From contig CAWJUA010000022.1 of the NCBI GenBank assembly GCA_963845925.1, positions 145,863 to 209,862 on the forward strand: a stretch of 64,000 nt of DNA. The letters run 5' to 3'. Each line of letters starts with the position of its first letter. Position 1 is the stretch's first letter. The stretch comes from an uncultured Chloroflexia bacterium. GTDB lineage: Bacteria > Chloroflexota > Limnocylindria > Limnocylindrales > CSP1-4. The position numbers and the translations under genes were made by a program. Of the stretch, positions 35,068 to 47,772 are shown piece by piece. The notes under the pieces are model-generated. The model saw only the letters and a list, made by a program, of their open reading frames with translations, ran no database searches and had not been told where the DNA came from.

Positions 35068-36531
35068 TCAGCCCAGCCGGCGGAGCGCCGAGCGGGCAGC
35101 GAGCATGCCCGACACGCCGTGGACGCCGCCACCGGGCGGCGTCGATGCCGAGCACAGGTAGATCGCCGGGTTCGGGGTCGAATACGGGTCGAGGATCCGG
35201 AGCGACGGCCGCGTGAACAGCTGCCGCAGGTCGAACCGCCCGCCGGCGATGTCGCCGCCGACATTGTTCGCGTTGGCCGCCTCGATCCGGGCCGGTCCGG
35301 TCGCCGATGAGGCGAGGATCCGATCCCGGAATCCGGGCGCGAAGCGCTCGATCTGGCCGACGATCCGGTCCGTCGCGTCGACCGTCGAGCCGTTCGGGAC
35401 GTGGCAGTACGCCCAGACGGTGTGCCGGCCTGCGGGGGCGCGGGTCGGGTCGAACAGGCTCGCCTGGGTCAGCAGCACGAACGGCCGATCCGGGACGCGG
35501 CCGGCGGCGACCTCGGCCTCGCCGCGGGCGATCTCCTCGAGCGTGCCACCGAGGTGGACGGTCGCAGCGTCGAGCAACTCCGGCGCGCGCCACGGGATGG
35601 GGCCGTCGATCGCGAGGTCGAGCTTGAAGACTCCCGGTCCGTGGCGGAAGCCCTCGAGCCGGCGCCGATAGCCGGCCGGGAGGCGGTCCCCGGCGATGCC
35701 GGCGAGCCCGCCGGGCGACGTGTCGAACAGCGCGATCCGGTGGGGCGGCAGCTCGTCCGCGCTTGCCACCCGCCGGCCCGTCTCGACCCGCCCGCCGAGC
35801 GCCTCCAGCTCGGCGACGAGCGCGCGGGGCAGCATTCCCGCACCGCCCTCGGGGAGCGGCCAGCCGTCGACGTGTGCCGCGGCGCCGAGCACGAGCCCCG
35901 CCGCCGCGCTCACCGGCTCGGTCAACGGCAGGATCGAGTGGGCGGCGATCCCCGCGAAGAGCGCCCGGGCGGCGTCGCCCCGGAACCGTCGCGCGACCCG
36001 CGTCGCCGGCTGCAGTCCCAGCAGACCGAACCGGGCCATCCGCAGCGCCCGCGGCGGCGACAGCGGCACGTGGAACGGGGCGAGCAGGTCCGGCAACAGC
36101 GTCGGCGCCGCGTCGACCATCCAGCCGAGCAGGTTGCGGTACGCGTCGCCGTCGCCGCCCAACCCGCGGGCCGTCTCGTCGACGTCGCCACGGAGCAGGA
36201 CGGCGGAGCCGTCGTCGAGCGGGTGGCCGAGCGCCGCCGGCGGTCGGATCCAGCGCAGGCCGTGCGCCGCGAGGGCCGGCTCGAGGTCGGCGAAGAACGG
36301 CGAGATCCGGCCGAAGACGTGGATCGAGCTGCAGACGTCGTGGACGAACCCGGGCAGGGTCAGCTCGGCGGAGCGCGACCCGCCGCCGGGCTCGTCGGCC
36401 GCCTCGAGGACCGTGACCCGGAGACCCGCGCGGGCCAGCGTGATCGCCGCGGCGAGCCCGTTCGGGCCGGAGCCGACGACGATCGCATCCACCGCGTTGC
36501 GGTCGTCGGCCCGGCCAGAGCCGCCGGTCAC
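35068..36531 (-). CDS. FAD/NAD(P)-dependent oxidoreductase, phytoene desaturase (CrtI)-like family
   Basis: Dinucleotide-binding motif AIVVGSGPNGLAAAITLARAGLRVTVLEA. ~487 aa with C-terminal CrtI-family conservation. The GTG start overlaps the stop of the LMF gene (GTGA). Confidence 0.8.
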   Translation of the reverse strand: MTGGSGRADDRNAVDAIVVGSGPNGLAAAITLARAGLRVTVLEAADEPGGGSRSAELTLPGFVHDVCSSIHVFGRISPFFADLEPALAAHGLRWIRPPAALGHPLDDGSAVLLRGDVDETARGLGGDGDAYRNLLGWMVDAAPTLLPDLLAPFHVPLSPPRALRMARFGLLGLQPATRVARRFRGDAARALFAGIAAHSILPLTEPVSAAAGLVLGAAAHVDGWPLPEGGAGMLPRALVAELEALGGRVETGRRVASADELPPHRIALFDTSPGGLAGIAGDRLPAGYRRRLEGFRHGPGVFKLDLAIDGPIPWRAPELLDAATVHLGGTLEEIARGEAEVAAGRVPDRPFVLLTQASLFDPTRAPAGRHTVWAYCHVPNGSTVDATDRIVGQIERFAPGFRDRILASSATGPARIEAANANNVGGDIAGGRFDLRQLFTRPSLRILDPYSTPNPAIYLCSASTPPGGGVHGVSGMLAARSALRRLG

Positions 36532-37964
36532 AGCAGCGTGCCTCGCCCGCCCGCCCCGACGTCCGCCAGCCCGAACGGCGGCACGTACTCCGCCGCGAGC
36601 GTCCGCACCCACCAGCGGCCTGTCTCGCGCCACTCCCGCCACGTCGAGTAACGGTAGTGGAACAGCCGAGCCCGCACGACCTCCGGCGCCTCGTCCGGGA
36701 ACGGATTGCGCCGCAGCAGACGGAGCGTCGCCGCGTCGTTCTCGAGGAGGCGGACGAGGAACACGAGGAACCAGTCGCCGGCGTATCGCGGCGAGAGCGG
36801 GATGAACCAGATCATCCAGTCGAGTCGGTAGTGGTACGGCGCGACCTGCGGCGGCCGTCGTCCGGGGTCGCCGGGCTTGCCCTTGAACTCGTACTCGCGC
36901 CAGCCGTCGTCGGCCGCGCCGTCCGCCGCTCCCTCCACGACGACCTCGTAGCGCGTCCGCCCCACCGTCCCGAAGGCCCCGTAGGTGTTGACGATGTGGA
37001 ACGGGTTGAACGAGGCGTTCATCGCCTGGCCCGGGCTGGCCATGTTCCGGATCGGCCACCAGCTCAGCACGACGACGAGAGCCGCCAGCCCGATGACGAG
37101 GGCGCCGAACCAGGCCGGCGTCGGGCCGAACGTGCCCGCGGCGGCGACGCCCGCCGGGTCCGCGATGCCGGCGAAGCAGGCGAGGATCGTCAGCCAGTTC
37201 AGCCACGCGTAGTTGCCGCTGACGACGAGGTAGAGCTGGGTGAGGATCATCAGGACGGCCGCGACCGAGGCGAACGGCTGGGGCAGGAACAGGCCCCACG
37301 GCAGGACCAGCTGGGCGAAGAAGTTGCCGAGCACTTCGAGGCGGTGGAGCGGTCGCGGCAGGTGGTGGAAGAACCACGAGAGCGGGTTCGGCATCGGCTG
37401 CGTCTCGTGGTGGAAGTCCATGCATCGCAGGCGGCGCCAGCACTCGTCGCCGCGGAGCTTGATCAGGCCCGCCCCGAACTCGACCCGGAACGCGAGCCAG
37501 CGGAACGCGAGGATCACGAGCCACTGCGGCGCGGTCTCGGCGTTGCCGAGGAAGATCGCGAGGAACCCGGCCTCGAGGAGGAGCGACTCCCAGCCGAAGC
37601 CGTAGAACGTCCCGCCGACGTTGACGATCGACTGGTAGAGGATCCAGAGCGCGAGCCACGCGGCCATCGTCACCGGCAGCGGCGCCCGCTGCGGCAGCCC
37701 GATCACCAGCAGGATCGAGATCGCGATCCCGGCCCACGCGACGACTCGCAGCCGCCGGTCCGAGTAGCCCCAGTGGAAGAGGCTGGGCACCTCCAGGAAC
37801 CGCGTCCGGGCGAGGAGGCGGGTCGCCGGCTGGAGACCGCGCTCGCCGCTGAGCGCCGGGAACTGGTTCGCCGCGACGAGGAAGGCGATCGCGTAGATCA
37901 GCGCGAGGCCGCGCTCGATGACGAACCGGGCGATCGTGTAATCGGGTGCGTCGAGGGTGGGCAT
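36528..37964 (-). CDS. Lipase maturation factor (LMF / DUF1222) family polytopic membrane protein
   Basis: ~478 aa with multiple TMS and LMF-family segments (WGYSDRRL, FYGFGWESLLLEAGFLAIFL, NPFHIVNTYGAFG, YHYRLDWMIWF). Confidence 0.7.
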   Translation of the reverse strand: MPTLDAPDYTIARFVIERGLALIYAIAFLVAANQFPALSGERGLQPATRLLARTRFLEVPSLFHWGYSDRRLRVVAWAGIAISILLVIGLPQRAPLPVTMAAWLALWILYQSIVNVGGTFYGFGWESLLLEAGFLAIFLGNAETAPQWLVILAFRWLAFRVEFGAGLIKLRGDECWRRLRCMDFHHETQPMPNPLSWFFHHLPRPLHRLEVLGNFFAQLVLPWGLFLPQPFASVAAVLMILTQLYLVVSGNYAWLNWLTILACFAGIADPAGVAAAGTFGPTPAWFGALVIGLAALVVVLSWWPIRNMASPGQAMNASFNPFHIVNTYGAFGTVGRTRYEVVVEGAADGAADDGWREYEFKGKPGDPGRRPPQVAPYHYRLDWMIWFIPLSPRYAGDWFLVFLVRLLENDAATLRLLRRNPFPDEAPEVVRARLFHYRYSTWREWRETGRWWVRTLAAEYVPPFGLADVGAGGRGTLL

Positions 37965-38131
37965 ACCTGACCGTCGGCTGGGTCGACGCCCGCATCGTGG
38001 GCCACCGCCGGTATTGCTGTCATGCCCCAGCGCGGCTCGGGATGCGACGGCGGCGTAGCGAGATGTCACCGCGACGGTGCACGCTTATCGTCGGATCGAC
38101 CGCCACGCAGCACACCGGGGAGGAACGAAAC

Positions 38132-38969
38132 GTGCGGCTGCCCGAACGCGCCGATCAGCTCGCCTGGGGGATCCTGGGCGCGACCGCCGCCGCGACGTTC
38201 GCCGTCTGGATGTTCTTCTTCCCAGACTCGATCGCGGAGAAATTCGCCTGGGACGTCCATCCGCGGATGACGCAGCTGTTCATCGGTGCCGGGTACGTCT
38301 TCCGGACGGCGTTCTTCCTGTCGGTCGCGTTCGGGCGCGACTGGCGGCAGGCTGCGCTGGATGTTCTGGGGCAACCTCGCGTTCACGGGGACGCTGCTGC
38401 TGGCGACGTTCTGGCACGCCGGCGAGTTCAACTGGGATCCGTCGCAGACGATCGTCGGCCACCTCTGGCTGATCCTGTACATCTTCGAACCGGTCACGAT
38501 GCTCTACATGGTCCCGCGCGGCGTGTGGCGGCTCCCCGCCCCGACGGAGGGCGGCCCGATCTGGCTGCCGTTCCGCTGGTTCATGATCGCGGCGACCGGC
38601 CTGCTGCTCTCCGACGGCCTGCTGCTCGTCATCAACCCGGAGTTCGCCGCACTCCGGTGGCCGTGGGAGCTGAACCCGCTCGACGCGCGGATCATGGCGG
38701 CCTGGTTCCTCGGCTGGGCTGTCTGGCTCGGGACGATGGCGTTCGCCCGTGACTGGCTCGAGATCCGGCTGCCGGCCGCGCTCTTCATCCTCAACGGCGC
38801 GGCGCTCACCGCCGTCAACTTCCTGAACGGCGATCTGCTTAGCGGCACGGGGCCGGCGCATGCGTACCGGACCGGCCTGCTGCTGCTGACCCTGCTGATG
38901 GCGGGCTTCGCCGCGTACCAGGAGGTTCGCCGGGTCCGGAGCGTGCCAGCGCGCGAGGTGGAAGCATGA
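38132..38969 (+). CDS. Polytopic membrane protein of unknown function, translationally coupled to the P450 gene. Apparent frameshift near 38340.
   Basis: GGGGAGGA SD, then GTG at 38132. The N-terminal part (ORF 37946..38752) and the remainder (ORF 38286..38969) are in different frames. The stop overlaps the P450 start (ATGA). Confidence 0.5.
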
Positions 38970-40303
38970 CCTCGGGGCTGCCGCGGGCGTCGCTCGGCGA
39001 GAACGTCCGCTTCACGCTGACGTACCTGCTGCCGAGCTTCCTCCGGGGGATCGCGATCCCGTTGCCGTTCTGGACCGAGGTCGCGACGCGGTTCGACACC
39101 GGGCGCGGCGTGGCGACGGTGGAGCGTCTGACCAAGCGCTACGACGGCCGGCCTGTGATGCTCAAGAGCGTCCTCGGGCAGACGCTCCTCGTCCTGGCGG
39201 CCGACGATGTCCGCCGGGTCCTGGAATCACCCGTGTCCGTCTATGGAATGAACGCAACCGAGAAGCGTCGGCTGTTCTCCCCGTTCGTGCCTGATGCGCT
39301 CAACGGCTCACCTCCGGACCTCCGTGCCGAGCGCCGCCCGTTCAACGAGGCCGTCCTCGACTACGGACACGAGCCCCATCGCTTCGCGGAGCAATTCCTC
39401 AGGGTCGTCCACGAGGAGGTCGCGGCGATGCTGGCGGACGCCGGGGACCTCGACTACGAGCGGTCGCTCGCGGCCTTTCGAAGGATCGCCCGGCGCTGCG
39501 CCCTCGGCGATGCCGCCGCGGATGACACGGAGCTGAGCGAGGAGCACAGCCGATTGCGCGCCGACGCCGACTGGCTGGGGCTCAAGGTCTGGGCTCGACG
39601 CCGGGACGCGCGGCTTCGAGCGGCGATGGACGAACGGATCGAGCGGTACGTTGCCGCCGCCGAGCCCGGCACGCTCGTCAGTCTCTTCGCCTCCGCGCCC
39701 AAGGAGGCGGAGACCGATCCGAACGGCCAGGTGCCGTTCTGGTTGATGGCGCTCGACGCGGTTCGGACCGCGGTCTTCAACGCGCTGGCACTGCTCACGA
39801 CCGATCCTGCGGCGCACGAGCGCGCGCTCGCCGAGGTCCGCGCGGCGGACGCAGCCCACGGGCCGGGTACGGTCGCCGGCCTCGCCGACCTTGCCTTCGT
39901 GCGCGCCTGCCTGCTCGACAGCGTCCGGCTGTGGCCTGCGGCAGCGATGCTCGTTCGAGTCACGGCGGCCGAGACCGAGTGGTACGGCGAGACGCTGCCG
40001 ATCGGTTCGAGGGTCCTCATCCCCGTCGTCGCCCACCACCGCGCGCGTCGGCTGCCGCAGGCGAACCGGTTCGCTCCCGACCTCTGGCTCGATGGCTCGG
40101 CAGACGCCGACTGGCAGATGAACGTGTTCTCGCGCGGCGGCGCGCAGTGTGCCGGCCGGAATCTCGCCCTCCTGCTCGGCACCGCCAGCCTCGCGGAGCT
40201 GCTCCGGCAGGGGGAGTTCGAGCTCCTGAGGCCGAAGCTGGCCCCGGACCGGCCGCTGCCGTACGGAATGAACCCGTTGAACGTCCGGTTTGCCGTTCGC
40301 TGA
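38966..40303 (+). CDS. Cytochrome P450
   Basis: Haem-binding loop FSRGGAQCAGRNLA (FxxGxxxCxG). ExxR-like (LLDSVRL). 445 aa. Confidence 0.85.
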   Translation: MTSGLPRASLGENVRFTLTYLLPSFLRGIAIPLPFWTEVATRFDTGRGVATVERLTKRYDGRPVMLKSVLGQTLLVLAADDVRRVLESPVSVYGMNATEKRRLFSPFVPDALNGSPPDLRAERRPFNEAVLDYGHEPHRFAEQFLRVVHEEVAAMLADAGDLDYERSLAAFRRIARRCALGDAAADDTELSEEHSRLRADADWLGLKVWARRRDARLRAAMDERIERYVAAAEPGTLVSLFASAPKEAETDPNGQVPFWLMALDAVRTAVFNALALLTTDPAAHERALAEVRAADAAHGPGTVAGLADLAFVRACLLDSVRLWPAAAMLVRVTAAETEWYGETLPIGSRVLIPVVAHHRARRLPQANRFAPDLWLDGSADADWQMNVFSRGGAQCAGRNLALLLGTASLAELLRQGEFELLRPKLAPDRPLPYGMNPLNVRFAVR

Positions 40304-40390
40304 ACCCGCCTGACAGACCGTCACCGGGCGGCTCCGACAACGGCCGGGCGTTGTCATGGAGCCGAAAGAATCGGCCGGCATCCTTCCGGC

Positions 40391-40723
40391 ATGACTTCTC
40401 AACGCCGGCTTCCCGCCGAGCGCGATCGCGCGGTCGCCCGCCTCCACTCGCTGACCCGGGGCGCGGCCGTGGGCGGCGTTCTTGGCACGCTGCTGTTCGG
40501 CGCCGTGGCGGCAGCCTCGTATGACGGAACCGTTACGACGACGACGGCGGCGAACTCCAACGAGAGCGCGGCCCAGGTTGCCGCCGACAATTCGACGGCC
40601 AACGGAGCGACCGCGACGACGGACGGCGAAAGTTCGACCGACGACAGCCAGCTCCAGGCCACCCCGGCGCCCACGACCTCGACGACGTCGGGCGCCGCGC
40701 ACGCCTCGACCGGCGGCTCATGA
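40391..40723 (+). CDS. Small exported Thr/Ala/Ser-rich protein (110 aa) heading the ApbE operon. Candidate flavinylation substrate.
   Basis: N-terminal TM/signal (GAAVGGVLGTLLFGAVAAASY) and a low-complexity TS-rich tail containing ..DNSTANGATATTDG.., which resembles the ApbE target motif [ST]GA[ST]x[ST]. Its stop overlaps the apbE start. Confidence 0.45.
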   Translation: MTSQRRLPAERDRAVARLHSLTRGAAVGGVLGTLLFGAVAAASYDGTVTTTTAANSNESAAQVAADNSTANGATATTDGESSTDDSQLQATPAPTTSTTSGAAHASTGGS

Positions 40724-41700
40724 CCGACATCGCAGCGGCCGGCTGGCGGGCCATCGGCACCGGCGTCCGCGTCGTCGTCCACGATGGCAGCCTCGACGCC
40801 GCCCGGGCGGCCGTGGTGGACGTCCTCGACGAGGTCGACCGGGCCCTGAGCCGGTTCCGCGACGACAGCGAGCTGTCCCTGTTGAACGCCCGATCCGGCG
40901 AGGAGGTCGGCGCTGTCGCCGCTTCTCGGCGACGCGATCGCGGCCGGGCTGCGCGCGGCCCGGATCACGAACGGCGCCGTCGACCCGACGGTCGGGCGGG
41001 CGATGCGCCTGATCGGCTACGACCTCGACTTCCGGAGCCTGCCCCAGGACGGAGCGCCGCTCGAGGTCCGCTTCGAGGCCGTGCCCGGCTGGCAGACGGT
41101 CGCGCTCGCCGCGGACCGCCGCCGCGTCCGGGTCGCGCGCGGCGTCGAGATCGACCTTGGTTCCGTCGGCAAGGCGCTCGCCGCCGATCTCGCCGCGGGT
41201 CGTGCGCATGCGACGCGATGGGCCGCGGCGGCGTCCTCGTCTCGCTCGGCGGCGACATCGCCGTCGCGGGTACGCCGCCCGACGGCGACTGGCGGGTCCT
41301 CGTCGCGGAGGACAGCGAGGCGCCGGCCGACGGACCCGGCGAGGTCGTCGCGATCCGGACCGGCGCGATCGCGACGTCGAGCACGACCGTCCGGCGCTGG
41401 CGGCGCGGCGACCGCGCCCTGCACCACCTCATCGATCCTCGGACCGGCGCCCCGGTCGAGTCGCCGTGGCGGACCGCGTCCGTCGTCGCGGCCACGTGCG
41501 TCGACGCCAACACGGCCGCGACCGCGGCGATCGTCCTCGGCGACGCCGCGCTTGACTGGCTCGGGTCGACGGGCCTCGTCGCCCGCCTCGTCTCGACCGA
41601 CGGCGAGGTCGTCCGCGTCGGCGGCTGGCCGGAGCCGGCCGAGACGCGATCGTCTCCGGAAGCGGGCGCCCTCGTGTCGTCCGGACGGGCCGGCTCGTGA
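40720..41700 (+). CDS. apbE: FAD:protein FMN transferase (ApbE family). Two apparent frameshifts (~40913, ~41218).
   Basis: ApbE hallmarks IDLGSVGKALAADLAA, LVSLGGDIAV, HHLIDPRTGAPV, DANTAATAAIV. The central third (SPLLGDAIAAGLRAARITNGAVDPTVGRAMRLIGYDLDF...) lies in ORF 41003.. in another frame. Confidence 0.75.
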   Translation: MTDIAAAGWRAIGTGVRVVVHDGSLDAARAAVVDVLDEVDRALSRFRDDSELSLLNARSGEEVGAVAASRRRDRGRAARGPDHERRRRPDGRAGDAPDRLRPRLPEPAPGRSAARGPLRGRARLADGRARRGPPPRPGRARRRDRPWFRRQGARRRSRRGSCACDAMGRGGVLVSLGGDIAVAGTPPDGDWRVLVAEDSEAPADGPGEVVAIRTGAIATSSTTVRRWRRGDRALHHLIDPRTGAPVESPWRTASVVAATCVDANTAATAAIVLGDAALDWLGSTGLVARLVSTDGEVVRVGGWPEPAETRSSPEAGALVSSGRAGS

Positions 41701-42299
41701 GCACCCAGCTCCTGTGGTTTGCGACCCGCGGTGCCGGCATCGTGTCCCTGATCCTGTTCAGCGTCGTCGCCTGCCTGGGCCTGCTGGCCGTGGCTCGCGC
41801 CCAGTCGACGTGGTGGCCGCGGTTCCTGACCGTCGAGGTCCATCGGTCGCTCGCGCTGCTCTCGGTCGCGTTCCTCGCGGTCCACATCGCGACCGCCGTC
41901 TTCGACCCGTTCACCCACCTCGGCCTGGCGGCGGCGATCCTGCCACTCGCGTCGAGCTACCGACCGGTGCAGGTCGCGCTGGGCGTGGTCTCTGTGTACT
42001 TCGCCGCCGCGATGATCGTCACGAGCCTCCTCCGCGACCGCCTGGGTCACCTGGCGTGGCGGACGGTCCACTGGCTCGCGTACGCGGCGTGGCCGCTGGC
42101 CGTCGCCCACTCGATCACGGCCGGCAGCGACGGCATCGCGGTGTGGATGCTCGCGGTGACGGGACTGTGCGTCTTGGCCGTCGGCGCCGCGCTGTTCTAC
42201 CGACTCGAGGCCGGCCGGACGAACCGCAGCCGGCTGCCCGCGGTCGCAGCCGGCACCGCCGCCCCGATCCCGGCCGAGCCGGCCTGGCGGAACGACTGA
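41697..42299 (+). CDS. Ferric-reductase-like transmembrane di-haem b protein (MsrQ/YedZ-like, PF01794) with no fused FAD/NAD domain
   Basis: Six TMS. His pairs with 13-14 residue spacing in two helices (VHRSLALLSVAFLAVHIA and VHWLAYAAWPLAVAHSI) give the bis-His ligation of two b haems. Start overlaps the apbE stop. Confidence 0.7.
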   Translation: MSTQLLWFATRGAGIVSLILFSVVACLGLLAVARAQSTWWPRFLTVEVHRSLALLSVAFLAVHIATAVFDPFTHLGLAAAILPLASSYRPVQVALGVVSVYFAAAMIVTSLLRDRLGHLAWRTVHWLAYAAWPLAVAHSITAGSDGIAVWMLAVTGLCVLAVGAALFYRLEAGRTNRSRLPAVAAGTAAPIPAEPAWRND

Positions 42300-42300
42300 C

Positions 42301-43560
42301 ATGGACCTGCGCCTGCTCGCCGGCCCACCGGCCGCGGCCGGGACCGAATCGTTCGGCGACCATCGCGCCCGCCTCGGCGGGCGGCCGGACGGCCCGTCGG
42401 CCCGGGACACGATCCCGGCCCTCGAGGCAAGCGGGCTGCTCGGCCGCGGCGGGGCGGGCTTCCCGGTGGGGCGCAAATGGCGATCGGTCGCCGAGCAGGC
42501 CGCCCGGGCCGGCACTCGACCGGTCGTCCTCGTCAACGGCGCAGAAGGCGAGCCGCTCAGCTCGAAGGACCGGACGCTGCTCCGTCTTCGGCCGCATCTC
42601 GTCCTCGACGGGGCGCTGACCGCCGCCGACGCCGTCGGCGCCGACCGGATCGAGCTCTACATCGGATCCGAGCACCGCGACGCCCGCCTCGCGCTCCGCC
42701 GCGCGATCACCGAGCGGTCCGATATCCGGCTGCCGCTTCGAATCGTCGACGCCCCGGCCGCGTACGTCGCCGGCGAGGAGTCCGCGGCCGTCCACTTCGT
42801 CAACGAGGGCGACGCCCGCCCGACCACGACGCCGCCACGCCCCTTCGAGCGGGGGATCGGCGGCCGCCCGACGCTCGTCCAGAACGTCGAGAGCCTCGCG
42901 GCAGCCGCGCTGATCGCCCGCCGCGGGCCCGGCTGGTACCGCGAGACCGGCCGCGGCGCGACGCCCGGGACCGCGCTGATCACCGTCACCGGCGCCGCGA
43001 ACGACGGCATCCACGAGATCGAGATCGGCACGCCGATCGCGGAGCTGGCAGGGGCCGCTGGCGCCGGCGCGGGCCCCGACGACCGCCAGGCGGTCCTGCT
43101 CGGCGGCTACTTCGGCGGGTGGGTCGGCGCCGAGCGAGCGTGGCGCCTGCCGCTCGACCCGGTCGCGCTCCGCGACGCCGGCACCGCGTTCGGCTGCGGC
43201 GTCGTCGCGTTCCTCGGCAACGGCATCTGCGGCGTCCGGACGACCGCCCGGATCATGGACTGGATGGCTGGTCAGAGCGCGGCGCAGTGCGGCCCGTGCG
43301 TCTTCGGCCTCCGCGCGATCGCCGACGCAACCGGGCGAGTCGCCGCCGGCCATCCCGAGCGTGACGACGTGGCAAGACTCGAGCGCTGGGCGGAGCAGAT
43401 CGCCGGCCGCGGCGCGTGCCGCCATCCCGATGGCGCCGTCGGCCAGCTGCTCAGCTCGCTCCAGGTCTTCAACGCGGAGTGGAAGCTCCACCAGCGCCAC
43501 CGCCAGTGCAGCTTTGGGCACAGCGGCGGGCTGGATGCCGACGGGCGGAGGGTCGCCTGA
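42301..43560 (+). CDS. NuoF/RnfC-like NADH-binding FMN + [4Fe-4S] protein (Complex1_51K family), stand-alone
   Basis: GRGGAGFPVGRKW (FMN/NADH motif). Fe-S cysteine motif SAAQCGPCVFG. Further Cys at C-R-H. 1-nt gap from the upstream gene. Confidence 0.75.
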   Translation: MDLRLLAGPPAAAGTESFGDHRARLGGRPDGPSARDTIPALEASGLLGRGGAGFPVGRKWRSVAEQAARAGTRPVVLVNGAEGEPLSSKDRTLLRLRPHLVLDGALTAADAVGADRIELYIGSEHRDARLALRRAITERSDIRLPLRIVDAPAAYVAGEESAAVHFVNEGDARPTTTPPRPFERGIGGRPTLVQNVESLAAAALIARRGPGWYRETGRGATPGTALITVTGAANDGIHEIEIGTPIAELAGAAGAGAGPDDRQAVLLGGYFGGWVGAERAWRLPLDPVALRDAGTAFGCGVVAFLGNGICGVRTTARIMDWMAGQSAAQCGPCVFGLRAIADATGRVAAGHPERDDVARLERWAEQIAGRGACRHPDGAVGQLLSSLQVFNAEWKLHQRHRQCSFGHSGGLDADGRRVA

Positions 43561-43838
43561 TGCCGGCCGGCCCGCCGACGCGAACGTGGGATCGGATCGA
43601 CCAGCCAAGGCGAACCGGCTGGGGAATGTCGGACGCCCAACTCAAGGTCGACCGGATCGCCTGCGACGGCTACGGGATGTGCGCCGAGCTGCTCCCCGAG
43701 CTGATCGACCTCGACGACTGGGGCTACCCGATCATCCGCGAGGGCGGCGTCCCGGACGCACTCATCGATCACGCCCGCCGCGCCGTCGCCGTCTGCCCGG
43801 TGCTGGCCCTCCGGCTCGCCCGGGACGTGCGACCCTGA
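43560..43838 (+). CDS. Small ferredoxin-like [Fe-S] protein
   Basis: CDGYGMCAELLPEL...AVAVCP is a single-cluster ferredoxin pattern. The ATG overlaps the upstream stop (TGATG). Confidence 0.55.
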   Translation: MPAGPPTRTWDRIDQPRRTGWGMSDAQLKVDRIACDGYGMCAELLPELIDLDDWGYPIIREGGVPDALIDHARRAVAVCPVLALRLARDVRP

Positions 43839-43842
43839 GGCC

Positions 43843-44511
43843 ATGCGCATCCTGGTCGCGGAGGACGATCGCGGTCTCCGCGACGTCATCGTCCTCGGCC
43901 TGACCGACAGCGGCTACCACGTCGACGCGGTCGAGCGCGGCGACGACGCGATCGACCAGCTGCGGTTCTACGAGTACGACGTCGCGATCCTCGACTGGCG
44001 AATGCCCGGCCGCGAGGGGATCGACGTCGTCGAGTGGGCCCGTCGCCACAAGCGCCCGACGGCGATCCTCATGCTGACCGCCCGCGACACGCCGGCCGAC
44101 CGGATCCGCGGCCTCGACAGCGGCGCCGACGACTACCTCGTGAAGCCGTTCGACTTCGGCGAGCTCCTCGCCCGCGTTCGGGCCCTCCAGCGGCGGCCGC
44201 GCGGCGTCGATGGCGCGACGATCGACCGGGGCCGGCTCAGCCTCGACCCGGTCAGCCGGCTGGTGATGGTCGACGACCGCGAGCTGAGCCTGACCTCGAC
44301 GGAGTACCGGATCCTCGAGCTGCTGCTGCGGCGCTCGCCGGCCGTCGTCGACCGCAAGGCGATCGCCGAGCATGCCTGGGCCGACGAGACCGACCCGCTC
44401 GGCTCGAACGCGATCGACGTCCAGCTCAGCCGCCTCCGGGCGAAGCTGCCCGGCGCGGGAATCCGGATCGTCACGGTCCGCGGCGCCGGCTATCGGCTCG
44501 AGGAGTCCTGA
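43843..44511 (+). CDS. OmpR-family response regulator
   Basis: Receiver domain (DVAILDWRMPG, phospho-acceptor Asp) with a winged-helix C-terminus (YRILELLL..GAGYRL). 4 nt after the ferredoxin stop. Confidence 0.9.
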   Translation: MRILVAEDDRGLRDVIVLGLTDSGYHVDAVERGDDAIDQLRFYEYDVAILDWRMPGREGIDVVEWARRHKRPTAILMLTARDTPADRIRGLDSGADDYLVKPFDFGELLARVRALQRRPRGVDGATIDRGRLSLDPVSRLVMVDDRELSLTSTEYRILELLLRRSPAVVDRKAIAEHAWADETDPLGSNAIDVQLSRLRAKLPGAGIRIVTVRGAGYRLEES

Positions 44512-44513
44512 CC

Positions 44514-45737
44514 GTGGCCGTCGCGGCGCTGCCGAGCGTCCGCCGGGTCTCGATCCGCGTCGCCCTCCTCGCGACGGCGGTCGTCGCGGCCGCGTACCTC
44601 GCGGTCTGCGTCGGCGTGATCGCGATCGTCCAGCGCAACCTCACTGACCAGATCGACCAGCGGATCACCGCGTCGTTCGTCCGGCTCGACGACGACCACG
44701 GCCGCGACGACCACCCGTACCAGGCCCCACCGCCGGAGCGGTTCGGCGGCGCCCCGGTCGTGGTCTGGGCCGTCGATTCGGGTGGCCAGGTCCACACCGA
44801 CAGCGCGAACCCGGCCCTACCTGCCGAGTACACCAGCGTCCGCGGGCCGGTCACTGCCACGATCAACGGCGTCGATCTCAGGCTCGCCGGCCAGGCCGTC
44901 GGCGACGACTGGGTCGTCATCGGCCAGTCGCTCGAGGGGGTCAGCGAGACCCGCCAGAACGTGATCGTCGCGGAGCTGCTGATCGCGCCGTTCCTCCTTG
45001 GGGCGGTGTTCCTCGGCGCGCTCTGGATCGGCCGGCGGGTTGCCGCGCCGATCGAGGCATCGCGCCGCCGCCAGCTCGACTTCACGGCCGACGCTTCTCA
45101 CGAGCTGCGGACGCCGCTCGCGGTCATCGAGGCCCAGACGAGCCTCGCCCTGGCCGGCCAGCGGGACGTGGCCTGGTCCCGGGCCGCGTTCGAGCGTGTC
45201 GACGACGAGGCCAAGCGGATGCGAAGGATGCTCGAGGACCTCCTCTGGCTGGCCCGGTTCGACGCCTCGAAGCGGCCGGTCGACGTCGAGCCGGTCGACC
45301 TGGCGGTGATGGCCGGCCAGGCAGTCGATCGGTTCGGGCCGGTCGCCGAGACCCGGCGCCTCACGATCGAGGTCCACGCGCCGCCCGACGGCGCGGTCGT
45401 CGCGGCACCGCCCGAATGGCTCGATCGCCTGCTCGGCGTGCTGCTCGACAACGCCTGCAAATACGCGCCCGACGGCGGCCGTGTCGACGTGACCGTTGCG
45501 ATCGACGGGTCGCGCGTCGCCCTGACGGTGGACGACAGCGGCCCGGGCATCCCCGAAGGCGAGCGGACGCGGATCTTCGACCGGTTCCACCGGGCGACCG
45601 ACGAGGCCGGCGGGGCTGGCCTGGGCCTCGCGATCGCCGACGCGATCGTCCGGGCGACGGGCGGCCGCTGGCGCGTCGCGAGCTCGCCGTCCGGGGGCGC
45701 CCGGATGGGCGTCAGCTGGACGCGCGCCCTCGCCTGA
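44514..45737 (+). CDS. Sensor histidine kinase (HAMP-HisKA-HATPase_c)
   Basis: GTG start 2 nt after the response regulator stop. Two TMS. H-box SHELRTPL. N, G1, G2 boxes (LDNACKYAP, DDSGPGIP, GGAGLGLAI). Confidence 0.85.
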   Translation: MAVAALPSVRRVSIRVALLATAVVAAAYLAVCVGVIAIVQRNLTDQIDQRITASFVRLDDDHGRDDHPYQAPPPERFGGAPVVVWAVDSGGQVHTDSANPALPAEYTSVRGPVTATINGVDLRLAGQAVGDDWVVIGQSLEGVSETRQNVIVAELLIAPFLLGAVFLGALWIGRRVAAPIEASRRRQLDFTADASHELRTPLAVIEAQTSLALAGQRDVAWSRAAFERVDDEAKRMRRMLEDLLWLARFDASKRPVDVEPVDLAVMAGQAVDRFGPVAETRRLTIEVHAPPDGAVVAAPPEWLDRLLGVLLDNACKYAPDGGRVDVTVAIDGSRVALTVDDSGPGIPEGERTRIFDRFHRATDEAGGAGLGLAIADAIVRATGGRWRVASSPSGGARMGVSWTRALA

Positions 45738-45781
45738 CGAATCTCATCAAATCGAAAGGTTTGGGTGGCAGCCTGTCCCCG

Positions 45782-46123
45782 ATGAACCGCGCGACCCGGC
45801 AGCAGGTCACCCGCCGCTCCGTTGCGCTCGATCGCCTCGAGTCGATCACGACCGGGGCGGCGATCGCGGGCGTCGCCGGCACGATCGGCTTCGGCGCGCT
45901 GGCGGCGATCACGTTCTCCGGCACCGCGAACGCCGCGAACCCCGCGGACGGGCAGTCCGGCCCGAACGTCCAGACCGACCGGAGCGGCCCGAGCCGCGAC
46001 GACGTGATTAGCCCAGTTACCCCGAACACGAACGACGACAACGGCGCCCAGCCGTTCGTCGCGGCTCCGGCGCCTCAGACGAGCTCCCGCCGCAGCCACG
46101 CCACGACCGGAGGGTCGGGCTAG
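45782..46123 (+). CDS. Small secreted protein (113 aa) downstream of the two-component system
   Basis: MNRATRQQVTRRSVALDRLESITTGAAIAGVAGTIGFGALAAITFSGTANAANPADG... has a signal peptide/TM and an Asp/Asn/Pro-rich tail. Confidence 0.4.
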   Translation: MNRATRQQVTRRSVALDRLESITTGAAIAGVAGTIGFGALAAITFSGTANAANPADGQSGPNVQTDRSGPSRDDVISPVTPNTNDDNGAQPFVAAPAPQTSSRRSHATTGGSG

Positions 46124-46212: not shown

Positions 46213-47772
46213 TCAGTCGCTGACGAATTCCCGGAGCTTGCGGCTCCGCGAGGGGTGGCGCAGCTTGCGCAGCGCGTGCGACTCGATCTGGCGGATCCGC
46301 TCGCGCGTCAGGCCGAACTCCTTGCCGACCTCCTCGAGCGTCCGCGGCCGGCCGTCGTCGAGGCCGAACCGCAGCCGGAGGACGCGCTCCTCGCGGCCCT
46401 CGAGGCTGTCGAGCACCCGGGAGACCTGCTCCTTGAGGAGCTGCTCGGTGACGACCTCTTCCGGCCGAAGCGCGTTCGGGTCCTCGATCAGCTGACCGAG
46501 CTCCGTGTCGCCTTCCTCGCCGACGGGCGTCTCGAGCGAGATGGGGGAGCGACCGTAGCGGCGCACCTCCTCGACCCGCTCGGCGGTGATCGCCATCCGC
46601 GGATCCTTGGACAGCTCGTCCGCGATCTCCTCGGTCGTCGGCTCCCGCCCGAGCGTGAGCGTCAGCTCGCGCGTCGTCCGGGTGACCCGCTGCATGGTCT
46701 CGACCATGTGGACCGGGATGCGGATCGTCCGCGACTGGTCGGCGAGGCCGCGCTGGATCGCCTGGCGGATCCACCACGTCGCGTACGTCGAGAACTTGAA
46801 GCCGCGCTGCCACTCGAACTTGTCGACGGCCCGCATCAGGCCGGCGTTGCCCTCCTGGATGAGATCCAGGAAGCCGAGGCCGCGGTTCATGTACTTCTTG
46901 GCGTTGGCGACGACGAGCCGGAGGTTCGCCGACGTCAGGTGGTCGCGGGCCGCCCGGCCCTTCGTCGTGAGGTCGTCGATCATCTCGGCGACCGTCTCGA
47001 CGTCGTTGCCGGCCTCGACCCAGCGGCGGACCGCCGGGATCGCGACCTCGTCGCGGGCCCAGGTGCGCATCGCCACGATCGGCTTCTCGTCACGGACGAG
47101 CGGCCGGCGGCCGTCGCCGTGGACCCAGTCGAGGAGCGCGCTGAATGTCTCCGCGTCGAGCTGCTCGTTATAGATCGCCCGGAGGTTGCGGGCCTTGCCG
47201 AGGAGCTCGCGCGCCTCGCCTTCGGCCGACGCGATCGCGTCGGTCAGGCCGACCTTCGGCGCGGTCGTGAGCAGGTCGAGCGCGCCATCGTCGGCGAACG
47301 CCGCCAGGACGATGCGGTGGGCCTCCTCGGCGAACGGCAGCAGGTACGCCGGGTTCTTCGCCCGGGTCTTGGCCTCGGTGTCGTTGAGGGTCCACTCGTG
47401 GATGTCGAGGATCGCGGTCCACGGCTCAGTGGCCATGCGGACGCCGAGCTCGATCGACTTCGCGAGGACGACCTCCTCCTCTGCGCTGAGGAGCGGGACG
47501 CGGGCGATCTCCCGGAGGTACAGGCGCGTCGAGTCCTCGACGTCGAGCGACTCTTCGTCGACGACCTCGGCCGGCTCCTCGTCCGGATCCGCGACGGCCG
47601 GCGTGGCCGTGGCCACGGGTACGACCGCCTCGGGCTCCGCGGCAGCCGCCGCGAGCTCCTGGTCGCCCGGCTCCGGGATGGCGTCGAGCGAAAGCGCGGG
47701 AACGAGCTCCGACTCTGTCGGCTCGATCCCTTCGGTTCCATTTTCAATGAAGGTGATCAACGGTGACTCCAC
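46213..47772 (-). CDS. sigA: Principal (group 1) RNA polymerase sigma factor, sigma-70 family
   Basis: 519 aa. Acidic region 1.1. Region 1.2/2 ([72 protein letters not shown]). Region 3 and region 4.2 ([28 protein letters not shown]). The long non-conserved insert is typical of RpoD/SigA. Confidence 0.9.

Follow-up and report, generated by a model that had tools for sequence, protein, structure and literature searches.

Gene organization and conservation of the locus

The stretch of DNA analyzed here (the window, 64,000 nt) has its nearest relatives in Chloroflexota (Ca. Limnocylindrales), and not in Actinomycetota as a previous sequence-only reading had supposed. A cluster of eight co-directional genes was found in it, together with the following features:

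38966-40303, cytochrome P450 gene, 87 nt upstream of the gene of small protein 1
40350..40372, + strand, conserved upstream element (GTCA ... GAAAG), ~20-40 nt 5' of the first gene
40391..40723, + strand, small protein 1 (putative ApbE substrate, 'tether'), 110 aa, TM helix at aa 24-44
40700..40720, + strand, C-terminal heptad H-A-S-T-G-G-S (small protein 1, aa 104-110), recognized by homologue conservation
40720..41700, + strand, ApbE (FAD:protein FMN transferase), Pfam ApbE 7e-32
41697..42299, + strand, ferric-reductase-domain (FRD) protein of the NOX/STEAP/MsrQ type, 200 aa, PF01794 6.5e-7
42301..43560, + strand, stand-alone NuoF/HydB-like flavo-Fe-S protein, 419 aa, Complex1_51K 1.8e-32
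43560..43838, + strand, small single-cluster ferredoxin, 92 aa, Fer4_15 2.3e-13
43843..44511, + strand, OmpR-family response regulator, 222 aa, Response_reg 6e-28, Trans_reg_C 2e-18
44514..45737, + strand, sensor histidine kinase, 407 aa, HisKA 1.6e-12, HATPase_c 1.7e-22
45782..46123, + strand, small protein 2, 113 aa, same architecture as its paralogue small protein 1

Seven genes spaced by -4 to +4 nt had been claimed initially. The spacing was reproduced at 40391-45737, where successive junctions measure -4, -4, +1, -1, +4 and +2 nt, and the gene of small protein 2, lying beyond that segment, brings the count to eight. The Pfam matches listed above bear out the original family assignments. 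The gene order small protein-ApbE-FRD-NuoF-ferredoxin(-response regulator-histidine kinase)-small protein is retained in Limnocylindrales MAGs and soil metagenomes, and the core ApbE-FRD-NuoF-ferredoxin is present in 47 of 80 loci, extending to Actinomycetota, so that conservation of the cluster as a unit, as had been expected, is seen in many genomes. The GTCA and G.AAG columns of the upstream element are invariant in seven loci, some of them without the upstream P450 gene; a sigma-70 consensus scan gave no match, and the element is possibly a promoter or operator of the operon.

Clusters combining ApbE, a ferric-reductase-domain protein and a NuoF-like protein are already known bioinformatically as 'MsrQ-like' flavinylation clusters, 31 of which contain a NuoF-like PF10589 protein and in which an FMN-binding gene is typical (Meheust et al., 2021, PMC8238504). 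The arrangement, first described as not familiar as a characterized system, has therefore been noted before, though it was never characterized; the new part is the likely flavinylation substrate. In line with the earlier placement of the ApbE partner inside the cluster, no PF04205 (FMN_bind) gene was found within 7-10 kb on either side in seven annotated contexts.

Predicted redox proteins and the two-component system

The NuoF-like protein belongs to the family proposed for it, possessing a second Pfam domain, NADH_4Fe-4S (6.7e-16), and containing the motifs GRGGAGFPVGRKW and CGPC. It scores under every NuoF equivalog cutoff (206 vs 558 bits), and its best PDB matches are HydB and NuoF (~1e-44). 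Residues C310, C330, C333, C373 and C403 are invariant; compared with the canonical ESCGKCVPC, the segment QSAAQCGPC retains three of the four N3-cluster cysteines. A hydrophobic segment was not found in the protein, and it is predicted to be the cytoplasmic entry point oxidizing NAD(P)H. The start codon of the ferredoxin gene shares 1 nt with the NuoF-like stop codon, and the ferredoxin motif C-x2-Y-x2-C...CP offers three Cys, a pattern from which the cluster is probably of the [3Fe-4S] type. In 71 of 80 loci the next ORF after that of the NuoF-like protein is a ferredoxin (BLAST, E<=1e-4), and in 31 of the 80 the pair occurs without ApbE or the FRD protein, which characterizes it as a portable donor module and not a dedicated part. 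The electron logic put forward earlier stands as a whole, with ApbE, a NOX-type di-haem membrane protein, a ferredoxin and a cytoplasmic flavo-Fe-S protein that binds NAD(P)H as its components.

The FRD protein matches Ferric_reduct with 29.9 bits at a cutoff of 28. Its four conserved histidines, already pointed out, are H49, H63, H125 and H138, invariant in 24 orthologues; the pairs have 13 and 12 intervening residues, same as in NOX, and two bis-His haem b sites are predicted. A fused FAD/NAD(P)H domain is absent. The best PDB match of the FRD profile is the S. pneumoniae NOX (8qt6, E=0.004) with both His pairs aligned, and SpNOX and STEAP rank first in a Foldseek search with the protein model, but at pLDDT 64 and E>=0.06. 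This low-confidence model displays five long helices and one short helix, so the six TM helices proposed before are not established, and with such a poor model the helix number and sidedness are inferred from charges only.

Among NCBIfam models, RppA and the CopR/CusR type come closest to the response regulator, all below cutoff. Two TM segments of the histidine kinase, hydrophobic at aa 11-43 and 148-174, enclose an extracytoplasmic loop of ~105 aa. Both regulatory genes occur in 28 of the 47 loci containing ApbE and FRD.

Integrity and location of ApbE

The apbE gene is frameshifted as sequenced here: the 326-codon ORF is open, yet ~100 of its central codons are in the wrong frame owing to insertions of 1 nt near 40913 and 2 nt near 41203-41211 (references for the frame: loci L002, L008, L010, L087 and L088). 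Two insertions scrambling such a stretch might signify a true pseudogene and a system decaying in the source organism. We regard this as highly improbable, as both insertions are missing from relatives with ~94-95% DNA identity, where the gene is intact and encodes 325 aa, the shifted stretch still codes for ApbE at ~93% identity, and its codon-position GC tracks the original frame. Three others of the 12 genes compared with L087, encoding a lactonase-like protein, a 278-aa membrane protein and an MFS protein, are broken as well, which fits an error-prone long-read assembly. Considering the intact gene in relatives and these similar breaks, the frameshifts are most likely assembly errors. Once the three extra bases are removed, the 325-aa product shares 95.7% identity with that of the intact L087 gene; it matches ApbE structures at 8e-24 and aligns over residues 11-299 with solved ApbEs, the HHLIDP and DA..T segments included; judged by its sequence, the repaired enzyme looks competent.

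Signal peptide, lipobox and TM segment are absent from this ApbE subfamily at all ~40 loci, and the N-terminus begins directly at the core WRAIGT in all of them. Natural cytosolic ApbEs exist. ApbE is predicted to be cytoplasmic and the tails of the small proteins to be outside the membrane, a combination for which the tail would have to be exported after its flavinylation, or ApbE would have to take some unrecognized route. The extracytoplasmic flavinylation that had been assumed is thus hard to reconcile with the predicted topology.

Small membrane-anchored proteins with a conserved C-terminal heptad

Small protein 1 had no match in Pfam and NCBIfam searches. Its N-terminus is positively charged and is followed by a TM helix and an acidic, Thr/Ser/Ala-rich tail of 69 aa that ends in ...HASTGGS-stop, the stop codon overlapping the apbE start (ATGA). 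Small protein 2 ends in ...SHATTGGSG-stop, its heptad lying at 46097-46117; its position after the kinase gene, or after the ferredoxin gene if the two-component system is absent, is kept in 14 loci (L003, L004, L005, L007, L008, L010, L014, L017, L019, L064, L087, L088, L093 and L094). The architecture is common to 49 proteins in related loci, with variable Ser/Thr/Ala-rich tails of 45-150 aa (45-72 aa in the close family). The whole family counts 421 cluster representatives at E<=1e-3, none of them annotated. Conservation amounts to 0.66 in the N-terminus, 0.75 in the TM helix, 0.25 in the tail and 0.89 in the heptad. Where ApbE/FRD is encoded, 33 of 49 loci have a family member, vs 1 of 31 where it is not (Fisher 4e-9). 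The AF2 model of small protein 1 contains a helix at residues 8-42 and no secondary structure beyond, with pLDDT <50 at residues 48-88; the tails are predicted to be disordered.

The charge distribution of small protein 1 (KR 6 / DE 2 in the N-terminus, KR 0 / DE 7 in the tail) points to an N-in, C-out orientation. The N-termini of the great majority of the family contain 3-13 Lys/Arg, a few being shorter, partly due to start-codon choice; acidic tails with 0-1 Lys/Arg are typical of the Limnocylindrales proteins encoded directly upstream of apbE, other tails being mixed. Genes of GtrA and a PMT_2 glycosyltransferase lie 3' of small protein 2 with start/stop overlap in L093 and L094, and PMT_2 occurs near 12 of 49 ApbE loci vs 0 of 31 others; these neighbors fit an extracytoplasmic, possibly glycosylated tail.

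The pattern H-A-x-[T/S]-G-[G/S]-S, followed by 0-2 residues, ends 117 of 120 database homologues, a count that is partly circular since the collecting profile included the motif; it is also present in 121 of 138 further representatives. Free of this circularity is the position-based count: in 25 of 42 evaluable loci, an ORF stops where apbE begins and has [ST]G[GA][ST] <=2 residues from its C-terminus, at a background of 0.5% of all ORFs, and most of the remaining evaluable loci have the variants TGSS, TGAS or SGQS. The conserved [ST]G[AG][ST] is confined to the small proteins, other cluster proteins being devoid of it. The spacing of the heptad H-A-x-T-G-G-S is identical to that of the ApbE motif D-x-x-[S/T]-G-A-[S/T] (PMC12052999). 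It differs in having Gly (Ser in a few) instead of Ala at position -1 and His (Gln, Arg or Lys in some distant members) instead of the canonical Asp at position -6, and its acceptor is always Ser, which characterized ApbEs use less well than Thr (PMC12052999). Nevertheless, Ser is tolerated as acceptor and replacing the Asp of motif position 1 by Ala matters little; ApbE needs just the seven-residue motif and is functional with it at protein termini, and a truncated cytosolic ApbE fully flavinylates a C-terminal 12-residue tag in the E. coli cytoplasm (PMC12052999, PMC9400968). The idea of a small Thr/Ala-rich protein as target of flavinylation thus gains strong support from the heptad, unremarked at the time; the predicted FMN acceptor is the C-terminal Ser110 and not a Thr as first supposed.

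Proposed electron transfer pathway and alternative explanations

We propose, with a probability of about one half, that the eight-gene operon serves the transmembrane transfer of electrons, taken from NAD(P)H in the cytoplasm, to tethered FMN along the putative path NAD(P)H -> NuoF-like protein -> ferredoxin -> di-haem b -> tethered FMN. The NuoF-like protein (FMN and one Fe-S cluster) would oxidize NAD(P)H and hand single electrons to the translationally coupled ferredoxin, from which they would proceed to the outer haem of the FRD protein. The acceptor at the outer face would be not a folded FMN_bind domain but FMN on the C-terminal serine of the heptad, attached by ApbE to H-A-x-T-G-G-S of both paralogous small proteins. 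Flavinylation may well be cytoplasmic, because the ApbE subfamily has no export signal; an unfolded C-terminal tag as substrate would allow modification before export. Control of the operon probably lies with the embedded OmpR/histidine kinase pair, which has an extracytoplasmic sensor loop.

A canonical MsrQ-like system seems unlikely to us. In this case the target of ApbE would be a conventional FMN_bind protein, or another folded protein, with its gene elsewhere in the genome, while the small proteins would be membrane or cell-wall components of unrelated function (e.g., kinase modulators or scaffolds) whose motif has another role. The typical FMN-binding gene of such clusters (PMC8238504), the two deviating heptad positions and the restriction of the genome inspection to 64 kb speak for it; against it are the missing PF04205 neighbors, the stop-to-start arrangement of the small gene with apbE, the co-occurrence of 33/49 vs 1/31, the occurrence of the motif in the small proteins alone, and the missing signal peptide of ApbE, which would keep the enzyme away from a folded domain that has been exported. 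The flavinylated tails might instead be cytoplasmic (N-out, C-in, or not membrane-inserted), carrying electrons from the NuoF-like protein/ferredoxin to the inner haem in place of the NOX FAD domain. NOX-type proteins normally require a flavin beside the inner haem, and the paradox of ApbE without a signal peptide would disappear, but the charges of small protein 1 and most family members favor the opposite orientation, and Thr/Ser/Pro-rich tails with PMT_2/GtrA neighbors are typical of extracytoplasmic segments, which makes this variant very unlikely.

Little probability is likewise assigned to the view that the NuoF-like protein and ferredoxin act as a general-purpose NAD(P)H:ferredoxin reductase pair, which in this clade has the adjacent cytochrome P450 as its main client and is linked to FRD/ApbE by neighborhood only. 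Ferredoxins of the Fer4_15 family typically pair with P450s, the P450 gene is located 87 nt upstream here and likewise in L002 and L087, and the pair is found in 31 of 80 loci without ApbE/FRD, e.g., in Mycobacterium-type loci behind genes for an amidohydrolase, a Rieske protein and a hydrolase. However, most loci retaining ApbE-FRD-NuoF-ferredoxin have no P450, the FRD/NuoF (+1) and NuoF/ferredoxin (-1) junctions are tighter than the gap between the P450 and small protein 1 genes, and the conserved upstream element opens the unit at small protein 1 even without P450. Quite improbable, too, is a split bacterial NADPH-oxidase analogue with accessory or regulatory small proteins and ApbE, its outer haem reducing O2 or a metal ion directly as NOX/FRE/STEAP proteins do with O2 or metals; the identical His spacing of the closest solved relative, S. 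pneumoniae NOX, and a two-component system nearest to metal-sensing families (though below cutoff) agree with it, but the strict order of ApbE and motif-bearing proteins with the FRD gene across phyla would be left unexplained.

According to the tethered-FMN pathway that we prefer, each small protein would be anchored by its N-terminal helix and bear the heptad at the end of a disordered tail of ~45-150 residues. Such a 'flavin on a leash' could extend into or through the cell wall and reduce an external acceptor, candidates being Fe(III), Cu(II), quinones or humics, and O2. If confirmed, the conserved seven-residue tag on membrane-anchored floppy proteins would represent a new kind of flavin carrier.

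Organization of the operon and assignment of its products

Eight co-directional genes on the plus strand of the window (40391-46123) make up the operon. The first seven had been recognized in the sequence-only reading and are all present, but the eighth, encoding the second of two paralogous small proteins with a predicted membrane anchor and a predicted disordered tail, had been missed (45782-46123).

Genes of the operon (window coordinates, strand, product, junction to the preceding gene in nt)
40391-40723, +, small protein 1, first gene of the eight
40720-41700, +, ApbE, -4
41697-42299, +, membrane protein with a ferric reductase domain (FRD), -4
42301-43560, +, NuoF-like protein, +1
43560-43838, +, ferredoxin, -1
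43843-44511, +, OmpR-type response regulator, +4
44514-45737, +, histidine kinase, +2
45782-46123, +, small protein 2, +44

The families proposed for these products were each backed by profile searches (Pfam, NCBIfam). ApbE matched PF02424 at 7e-32 (111 bits against a curated cutoff of 25.6), the NuoF-like protein matched Complex1_51K (1.8e-32) and NADH_4Fe-4S (6.7e-16), the ferredoxin matched Fer4_15 (2.3e-13), and the two-component pair displayed Response_reg with Trans_reg_C (regulator) and HisKA with HATPase_c (kinase). The Ferric_reduct match of the FRD protein (PF01794, 6.5e-7), at 29.9 bits, lies barely over the Pfam cutoff of 28. Small proteins 1 and 2 have no Pfam match at E<=0.01 and none in NCBIfam.

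Upstream, a cytochrome P450 gene (38966-40303) ends 87 nt before the operon, and downstream a principal-type sigma-70 gene is convergent with it (46213-47772, minus strand). Scanning for sigma-70 promoters and terminators yielded no promoter and one terminator-like hairpin on the wrong strand; an Rfam scan of the window gave no matches. Upstream of the small protein 1 start, a GTCA(N7)G.AAG element (40350-40372), followed by a GC hairpin (40374-40390), is conserved in seven loci, with or without the upstream P450 gene. The P450 itself was found in the window and in the loci L002 and L087 (L numbers denote loci from other genomes), which form one clade; its sole NCBIfam similarity, to the RiPP P450 ApyO, is weak (72 bits against a cutoff of 525), and it could share the ferredoxin of the operon. 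Further upstream, on the minus strand (36528-38069), lies a bacterial homologue of the eukaryotic lipase maturation factor (LMF1 1e-59, LMF1_C 1e-46), with synteny kept in L087. A 96-nt tRNA-Gly with anticodon ACC, called by ARAGORN at 24412-24507 (minus strand), is probably a false positive, since no Rfam tRNA reached the gathering threshold anywhere in the window.

Reading frame of the apbE gene

The apbE frame is open over 326 codons and matches the ApbE profile, as had been read at first, but its central stretch is out of frame. Compared with the window, the relatives L002, L008 and L010 have one base fewer near 40911-40913 and two fewer near 41213, and the loci L087 and L088, about 95% and 94% identical to the window in DNA sequence, have one base fewer at 40913 and net two fewer at 41203-41211, their apbE being intact with 325 aa. 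Between the two break points the ApbE homology switches to another frame, and the third-position GC signal tracks this switch. After removal of three bases, the repaired ApbE consists of 325 aa and is 95.7% identical to the intact protein of L087; residues 11-279 align with ApbE structures already solved (8e-24), and the protein retains HHLIDP, DA..T and ATSS, segments aligned to catalytic regions of the solved enzymes. Four of the 12 genes compared with L087 are frame-broken in the window (lactonase-like, 278-aa membrane protein, MFS, ApbE), and similar gene splits occur in several long-read 'MFD' MAG loci. Considering the intact relatives, the frame-tracking GC and homology signals, the other broken genes and the split MFD loci, the breaks in apbE are very probably assembly errors rather than signs of decay, an error-prone (long-read) assembly being the apparent source of the window.

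Outside the operon, three frames are broken by isolated 1-nt indels when compared with L087 (~95% identity): at 33472 that of the lactonase-like gene, at 38350 that of the 278-aa membrane protein, the single gene of which comprises the open reading frames 37946-38752 and 38286-38969, and at about 51366-51413 that of the MFS transporter.

The predicted di-haem membrane protein and its putative electron donors

The four conserved His of the FRD protein, presumed from the beginning, were borne out: H49, H63, H125 and H138 are invariant in 24 orthologues (32-83% identity), the pairs H49/H63 and H125/H138 being separated by 13 and 12 intervening residues. Among solved structures, the one closest to a profile of these sequences is the Streptococcus pneumoniae NADPH oxidase SpNOX (8qt6; E=0.004), with both His pairs aligned. 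As to the six transmembrane helices read at first, the AF2 model, which is weak (pLDDT 64), shows five long helices and, at 76-80, a short one, and a hydropathy scan gave 4-5 segments. Foldseek with this weak model placed SpNOX and STEAP1/2 on top, at E>=0.06 and with nothing at E<=0.001, so that SpNOX is the top match in both sequence and fold, the fold rank coming from a weak model. The distribution of basic residues (loops 34-43 and 112-117, C-tail), taken with the model, suggests that the C-terminus is cytoplasmic and that an extra loop of 20 residues faces outwards.

The FRD protein thus resembles SpNOX, NOX2, FRE and STEAP in its transmembrane core with two His pairs at the same spacing. 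NOX enzymes possess a fused FAD/NADPH dehydrogenase domain, whereas the protein of the operon, only 200 residues long and closing with a short tail, lacks any such C-terminal fusion, a separate NuoF-like protein and ferredoxin being the proposed donor; the N-terminal helix of NOX also appears to be missing. Unlike MsrPQ, the operon has no gene for the periplasmic molybdoenzyme MsrP, and no molybdopterin oxidoreductase gene was found in the cluster in any of the annotated contexts (L001, L002, L005, L087, L088, L093, L094). Some actinomycetotal orthologues (L048:2214-2930, L051:6027-6713, L055:4490-5185) carry an additional C-terminal hydrophobic segment and a Ser/Thr/Pro-rich tail, which, judged by sequence, would place their C-terminus across the membrane.

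The NuoF-like protein matched PDB entries of HydB and NuoF at about 1e-44 and shares with complex I NuoF and with HydB of bifurcating hydrogenases an FMN- and NADH-binding fold (FMN loop GRGGAGFPVGRKW) and a C-terminal Fe-S domain; C310, C330, C333, C373 and C403 are invariant. It differs from both in that Ala stands in place of the first N3 Cys, which leaves the four-Cys N3 site incomplete, in its sub-equivalog scores (206 bits against a cutoff of 558 for the NuoF equivalog TIGR01959), and in having no NuoE/HydC partner or nuo operon: neither NuoE nor nuo genes were found nearby in the loci examined, including L001, L002, L005 and L087. RnfC-type models scored about 45-50 bits. The ferredoxin contains the motif C-x2-Y-x2-C...CP; these three Cys, by the general ferredoxin pattern, make a [3Fe-4S] cluster likely.

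Conservation and taxonomic distribution

More than 7800 homologues of the NuoF-like protein are present in the protein collection, with no match in an exact-sequence look-up. Scanning species-representative genomes with this protein yielded 80 loci. The closest (57-74% identity) belong to MAGs labelled Chloroflexia, Chloroflexota and Candidatus Limnocylindrales, which overturns the initial assignment to Actinomycetota; remoter ones (38-48%) occur in Acidimicrobiia, Solirubrobacterales, Mycobacterium, Nocardioides and Streptomyces. The ferredoxin gene directly follows the NuoF-like gene in 71/80 loci (BLAST, E<=1e-4). ApbE and FRD genes both lie upstream in 47/80, and 28 of these 47 also contain a response regulator and a histidine kinase. 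The cluster is conserved as a unit, the gene order of the window being kept in seven loci (L001, L002, L005, L087, L088, L093, L094). These were analyzed as annotated contexts, i.e., with called genes and precomputed Pfam domains, and in none of them was there a PF04205 (FMN_bind) gene that could provide ApbE with a different partner. The absence of the classical Nqr/Rnf membrane subunits also held in all seven, no NqrB/RnfD, NqrD/E or RnfA/E being found among the called genes. The cluster itself contains no FMN_bind, DUF2271 or DUF3570 genes.

In 31/80 loci the NuoF-like protein and the ferredoxin occur without ApbE or FRD, which points to a portable module donating electrons from NAD(P)H to ferredoxin. 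In Mycobacterium-type loci two amidohydrolases, a Rieske protein and an alpha/beta-hydrolase precede the pair, for example in L074 (2783-8490: two Amidohydro_2 proteins, Rieske [2Fe-2S], alpha/beta-hydrolase, NuoF-like protein and ferredoxin, no ApbE/FRD), which is resembled by further Mycobacterium/Actinomycetota loci (L060, L066, L069, L070, L072, L073, L076, L080, L082). The pair of this type may represent an uncharacterized type of NAD(P)H:ferredoxin reductase serving catabolic enzymes. A second, distant set of ApbE, FRD, regulator and kinase (about 30% identity; L024:2921-6753, L026:2992-6761, L057) precedes the NuoF-like protein and ferredoxin in some Chloroflexota and has no recognizable small motif protein; L057 contains two ApbE/FRD pairs.

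The small proteins and their C-terminal heptad

One architecture is common to 49 small proteins of related loci: an N-terminus of about 25 residues in most, with 3-13 Lys/Arg in the great majority; a Gly/Ala-rich transmembrane helix with the conserved flank RLRxLTxGxAxxGxAxTxGFGxxAA; a tail of 57-153 residues, 68-94% of which are Ser/Thr/Ala/Gly/Pro/Asp/Asn/Gln; and a C-terminal motif. In the AF2 model of small protein 1 a helix (8-42) is followed by an unstructured region (pLDDT <50 at residues 48-88). One gene of this family ends at the start of apbE, stop and start codons usually overlapping. In most Limnocylindrales loci carrying the two-component system a second one is placed after the kinase; L005, on one contig with L009, has no two-component system, and there the second gene comes directly after the ferredoxin.

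The association of this family with ApbE and FRD is pronounced: it was found in 33/49 loci with ApbE/FRD and in 1/31 without them (Fisher 4e-9), the lone exception being a contig truncated inside the NuoF-like gene. A strict motif, [ST]G[GA][ST] followed by at most two residues, terminates the reading frame abutting apbE in 25 of 42 evaluable loci; among all ORFs with 40 or more codons in these loci the frequency is 0.5%, and most loci failing it have the variants TGSS, TGAS or SGQS. The C-terminal motif next to apbE is not a chance feature.

Searching 5.8 billion proteins with a profile returned 143 matches, all annotated as 'hypothetical' and without Pfam domains. Among the matches listed, 117/120 have H-A-x-[T/S]-G-[G/S]-S at the C-terminus, followed by no more than two residues. 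In these 117 listed homologues, His at -6, Gly at -2 and Ser at 0 are present without exception, position -3 is occupied by Thr (103) or Ser (14), and position -1 by Gly (111) or Ser (6). When 1.84 billion representatives were searched exhaustively with an HMM, 421 family members emerged at E<=1e-3; 121 of 138 new representatives carried the motif, all 121 with Ser at 0. Conservation was bipartite: 0.66 in the N-terminus, 0.75 in the transmembrane helix, 0.25 in the tail (45-72 residues in the close family) and 0.89 in the heptad.

A Tat signal was rejected, as the twin Arg before the helix occurs in L002 and L005 and not in the window or L001. A candidate cleavable Sec signal is represented by an AxA-like 'AAA/S' in some small proteins, with a varying residue at -1 (I, L, R). 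Long database matches suggesting natural fusions with ApbE or FRD proved to be frameshifted mis-translations (e.g., P0451).

The heptad as a candidate flavinylation site

ApbE recognizes the motif D-x-x-[S/T]-G-A-[S/T] and attaches FMN to its last residue; seven residues are enough, the tag performs best at protein termini, replacement of Asp by Ala matters little, and Ser can take the place of Thr as acceptor, though it is used less well (PMC12052999). In the E. coli cytoplasm, ApbE lacking a signal peptide modified C-terminal tags on MBP, ADH and SUMO to completion (PMC9400968). The heptad H-A-x-T-G-G-S has the same length and register as this motif and agrees with it at -3, -2 and 0, the mismatches being His for Asp at -6 and Gly for Ala at -1. 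The canonical Ala at -1 (TGAS) occurs in a few distant members; an Ala-to-Gly change at -1 is not described in the literature examined (PMC12052999).

No conserved motif of the [ST]G[AG][ST] type was detected in the other proteins of the cluster. Considering this, the motif register and the precedent of terminal tags, we read the heptad as a candidate ApbE flavinylation site. Two further sequences were considered and rejected: 'GT' in the FRD tail fails on conservation, not extending beyond the closest clade, and 'TVTGAA' in the NuoF-like protein has Ala at the acceptor position in the window and is not conserved.

Location of the modification

In about 40 loci the N-terminus of ApbE lies 5-15 residues ahead of the core W(R/K)A(L/I)GT (WRAIGT in the window), and no hydrophobic N-terminus, lipobox or C-terminal anchor was found in them; ApbE is therefore predicted to be cytoplasmic. 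The tails of the small proteins, by charge distribution, are predicted to lie outside the membrane. The simplest, speculative, reconciliation would be cytoplasmic modification of the terminal tag, which, being unfolded, might still be exported after receiving its flavin. This route through Sec would be closed to a folded FMN_bind domain, and export of the already flavinylated tail would make a FAD exporter unnecessary.

The two locations could also be reconciled if the tail were itself cytoplasmic, on the side predicted for ApbE. Against this rival stands the predicted orientation of the tail, and genes in its neighbourhood are compatible with an extracytoplasmic Ser/Thr-rich tail: a PMT_2 homologue was found near 12/49 ApbE/FRD loci and 0/31 others, and none in the window. 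GtrA-like and PMT_2/YkcB_C genes directly follow small protein 2 in L093:7366-9848, L094:7366-9848 and L001:12420-15092, with a start/stop overlap of the glycosyltransferase gene in L093 and L094. This hints at glycosylation of the tails. Another rival is that ApbE modifies a different substrate encoded elsewhere in the genome. The ApbE substrates reported in the papers examined are without exception folded domains (FMN_bind, NqrB/RnfD, DUF2271, DUF3570, Flavodoxin_4, FMN reductase; PMC11334425). When the coding frames of the window were scanned with a regular expression for further [ST]G[AG][ST] sequences, no canonical D..[ST]GA[ST] site was revealed. What speaks for the small proteins is their near-confinement to ApbE/FRD loci and the coupling of one of their genes to apbE.

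In the most far-reaching reading, the substrate would be a disordered, membrane-anchored 'leash', the sole conserved extracytoplasmic feature of which is the FMN-carrying C-terminal heptad. ApbE without a signal peptide would install FMN in the cytoplasm, the flavin leaving together with the unfolded tail, and the resulting tethered flavin would span the cell wall and receive electrons via the NuoF-like protein, the ferredoxin and the di-haem b protein. As a whole, i.e., a new class of ApbE substrate, cytoplasmic installation of FMN, export with the tail and a split NOX-like feed chain, this reading is tentative, and we give it a probability of about 35%.

Comparison with known systems

The combination of ApbE, FRD and NuoF-like proteins, initially noted as unfamiliar among characterized systems, is already on record as a prediction. 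Meheust et al. (2021, PMC8238504) described 1797 'MsrQ-like' flavinylation clusters, mostly from Actinobacteria, 1437 of them with a fused NAD-binding domain; 31 MsrQ-like clusters have a NuoF-like PF10589 protein, these being predicted and not characterized systems. The interpretation reached from the sequence alone was thus broadly sound, though not new at this level. Such clusters are delimited by a PF01794 protein at most five genes from ApbE, FMN_bind, DUF2271 or DUF3570, and in the operon the ApbE and Ferric_reduct genes are adjacent, with a 4-nt overlap. The PF01794 di-haem protein beside apbE and the proposed donor, cytosolic NAD(P)H, are common to both (PMC8238504, PMC11334425). In contrast to MsrQ-like clusters, the operon has no FMN_bind domain (typical but not obligatory there) and no signal on ApbE, has a separate ferredoxin, and offers as candidate substrate a disordered tail that bears its tag at the C-terminus. 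To be retained by Meheust et al., a cluster had to show a signal peptide or a lipobox, either on ApbE or on one of the known substrates (PMC8238504), so that the subtype of the operon would have dropped out. Huang et al. (2024, PMC11334425) later added Flavodoxin_4 and FMN reductase, both folded proteins, to the ApbE substrates. Full-text literature searches found no paper on a disordered or C-terminal natural ApbE substrate, and none except PMC8238504 on a donor chain of NuoF-like protein, ferredoxin and FRD.

The heptad resembles the engineered Flavin-tag of Tong, Fraaije and co-workers (PMC9400968, PMC12052999), a short unstructured terminal peptide with the ApbE motif, which is flavinylated, also in the cytoplasm by ApbE without a signal peptide (PMC9400968). 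The Flavin-tag is artificial (F1 = GVDGLSGATLTS) and has the canonical D...SGAT, whereas the heptad is natural, located at the extreme C-terminus and has a predicted Ser acceptor. The cytoplasmic ApbE of Klebsiella pneumoniae (PMC12052999) also lacks a signal peptide and acts in the cytoplasm, as predicted for the operon, but its substrate is the folded cytoplasmic FMN_bind domain of a soluble fumarate reductase, not an anchored disordered tail.

A functional parallel is offered by Ndh2/EetA/EetB/PplA with FmnB of Listeria, also a monoderm, in which electrons of NADH cross the membrane to an anchored protein; this protein receives its flavin from an ApbE-type enzyme and passes the electrons on to external acceptors, whereas in the operon flavinylation is predicted. 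Unlike the operon, the Listeria system employs the quinone pool, folded FMN_bind domains on a lipoprotein and the extracytoplasmic FmnB, with FAD supplied by an ECF transporter (PMC9973259); none of these parts is encoded in the operon.

What is new is the class to which the candidate substrate belongs, the lack of an export signal on ApbE and the split donor of NuoF-like protein and ferredoxin. The NOX-type haem core with its dehydrogenase exchanged for this donor informs on how FRD proteins recruit electron donors. If the proposed reading is true, flavinylation needs no flavin-binding fold, and some of the 'orphan' apbE genomes, in which substrates are still unidentified (PMC8238504), would be easier to explain. 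The heptad and its cognate enzyme would make a minimal natural pair usable for protein labelling. For monoderm soil bacteria, namely Limnocylindria and many Actinomycetota, the operon would suggest a passage of electrons through the thick cell wall without multihaem cytochromes.
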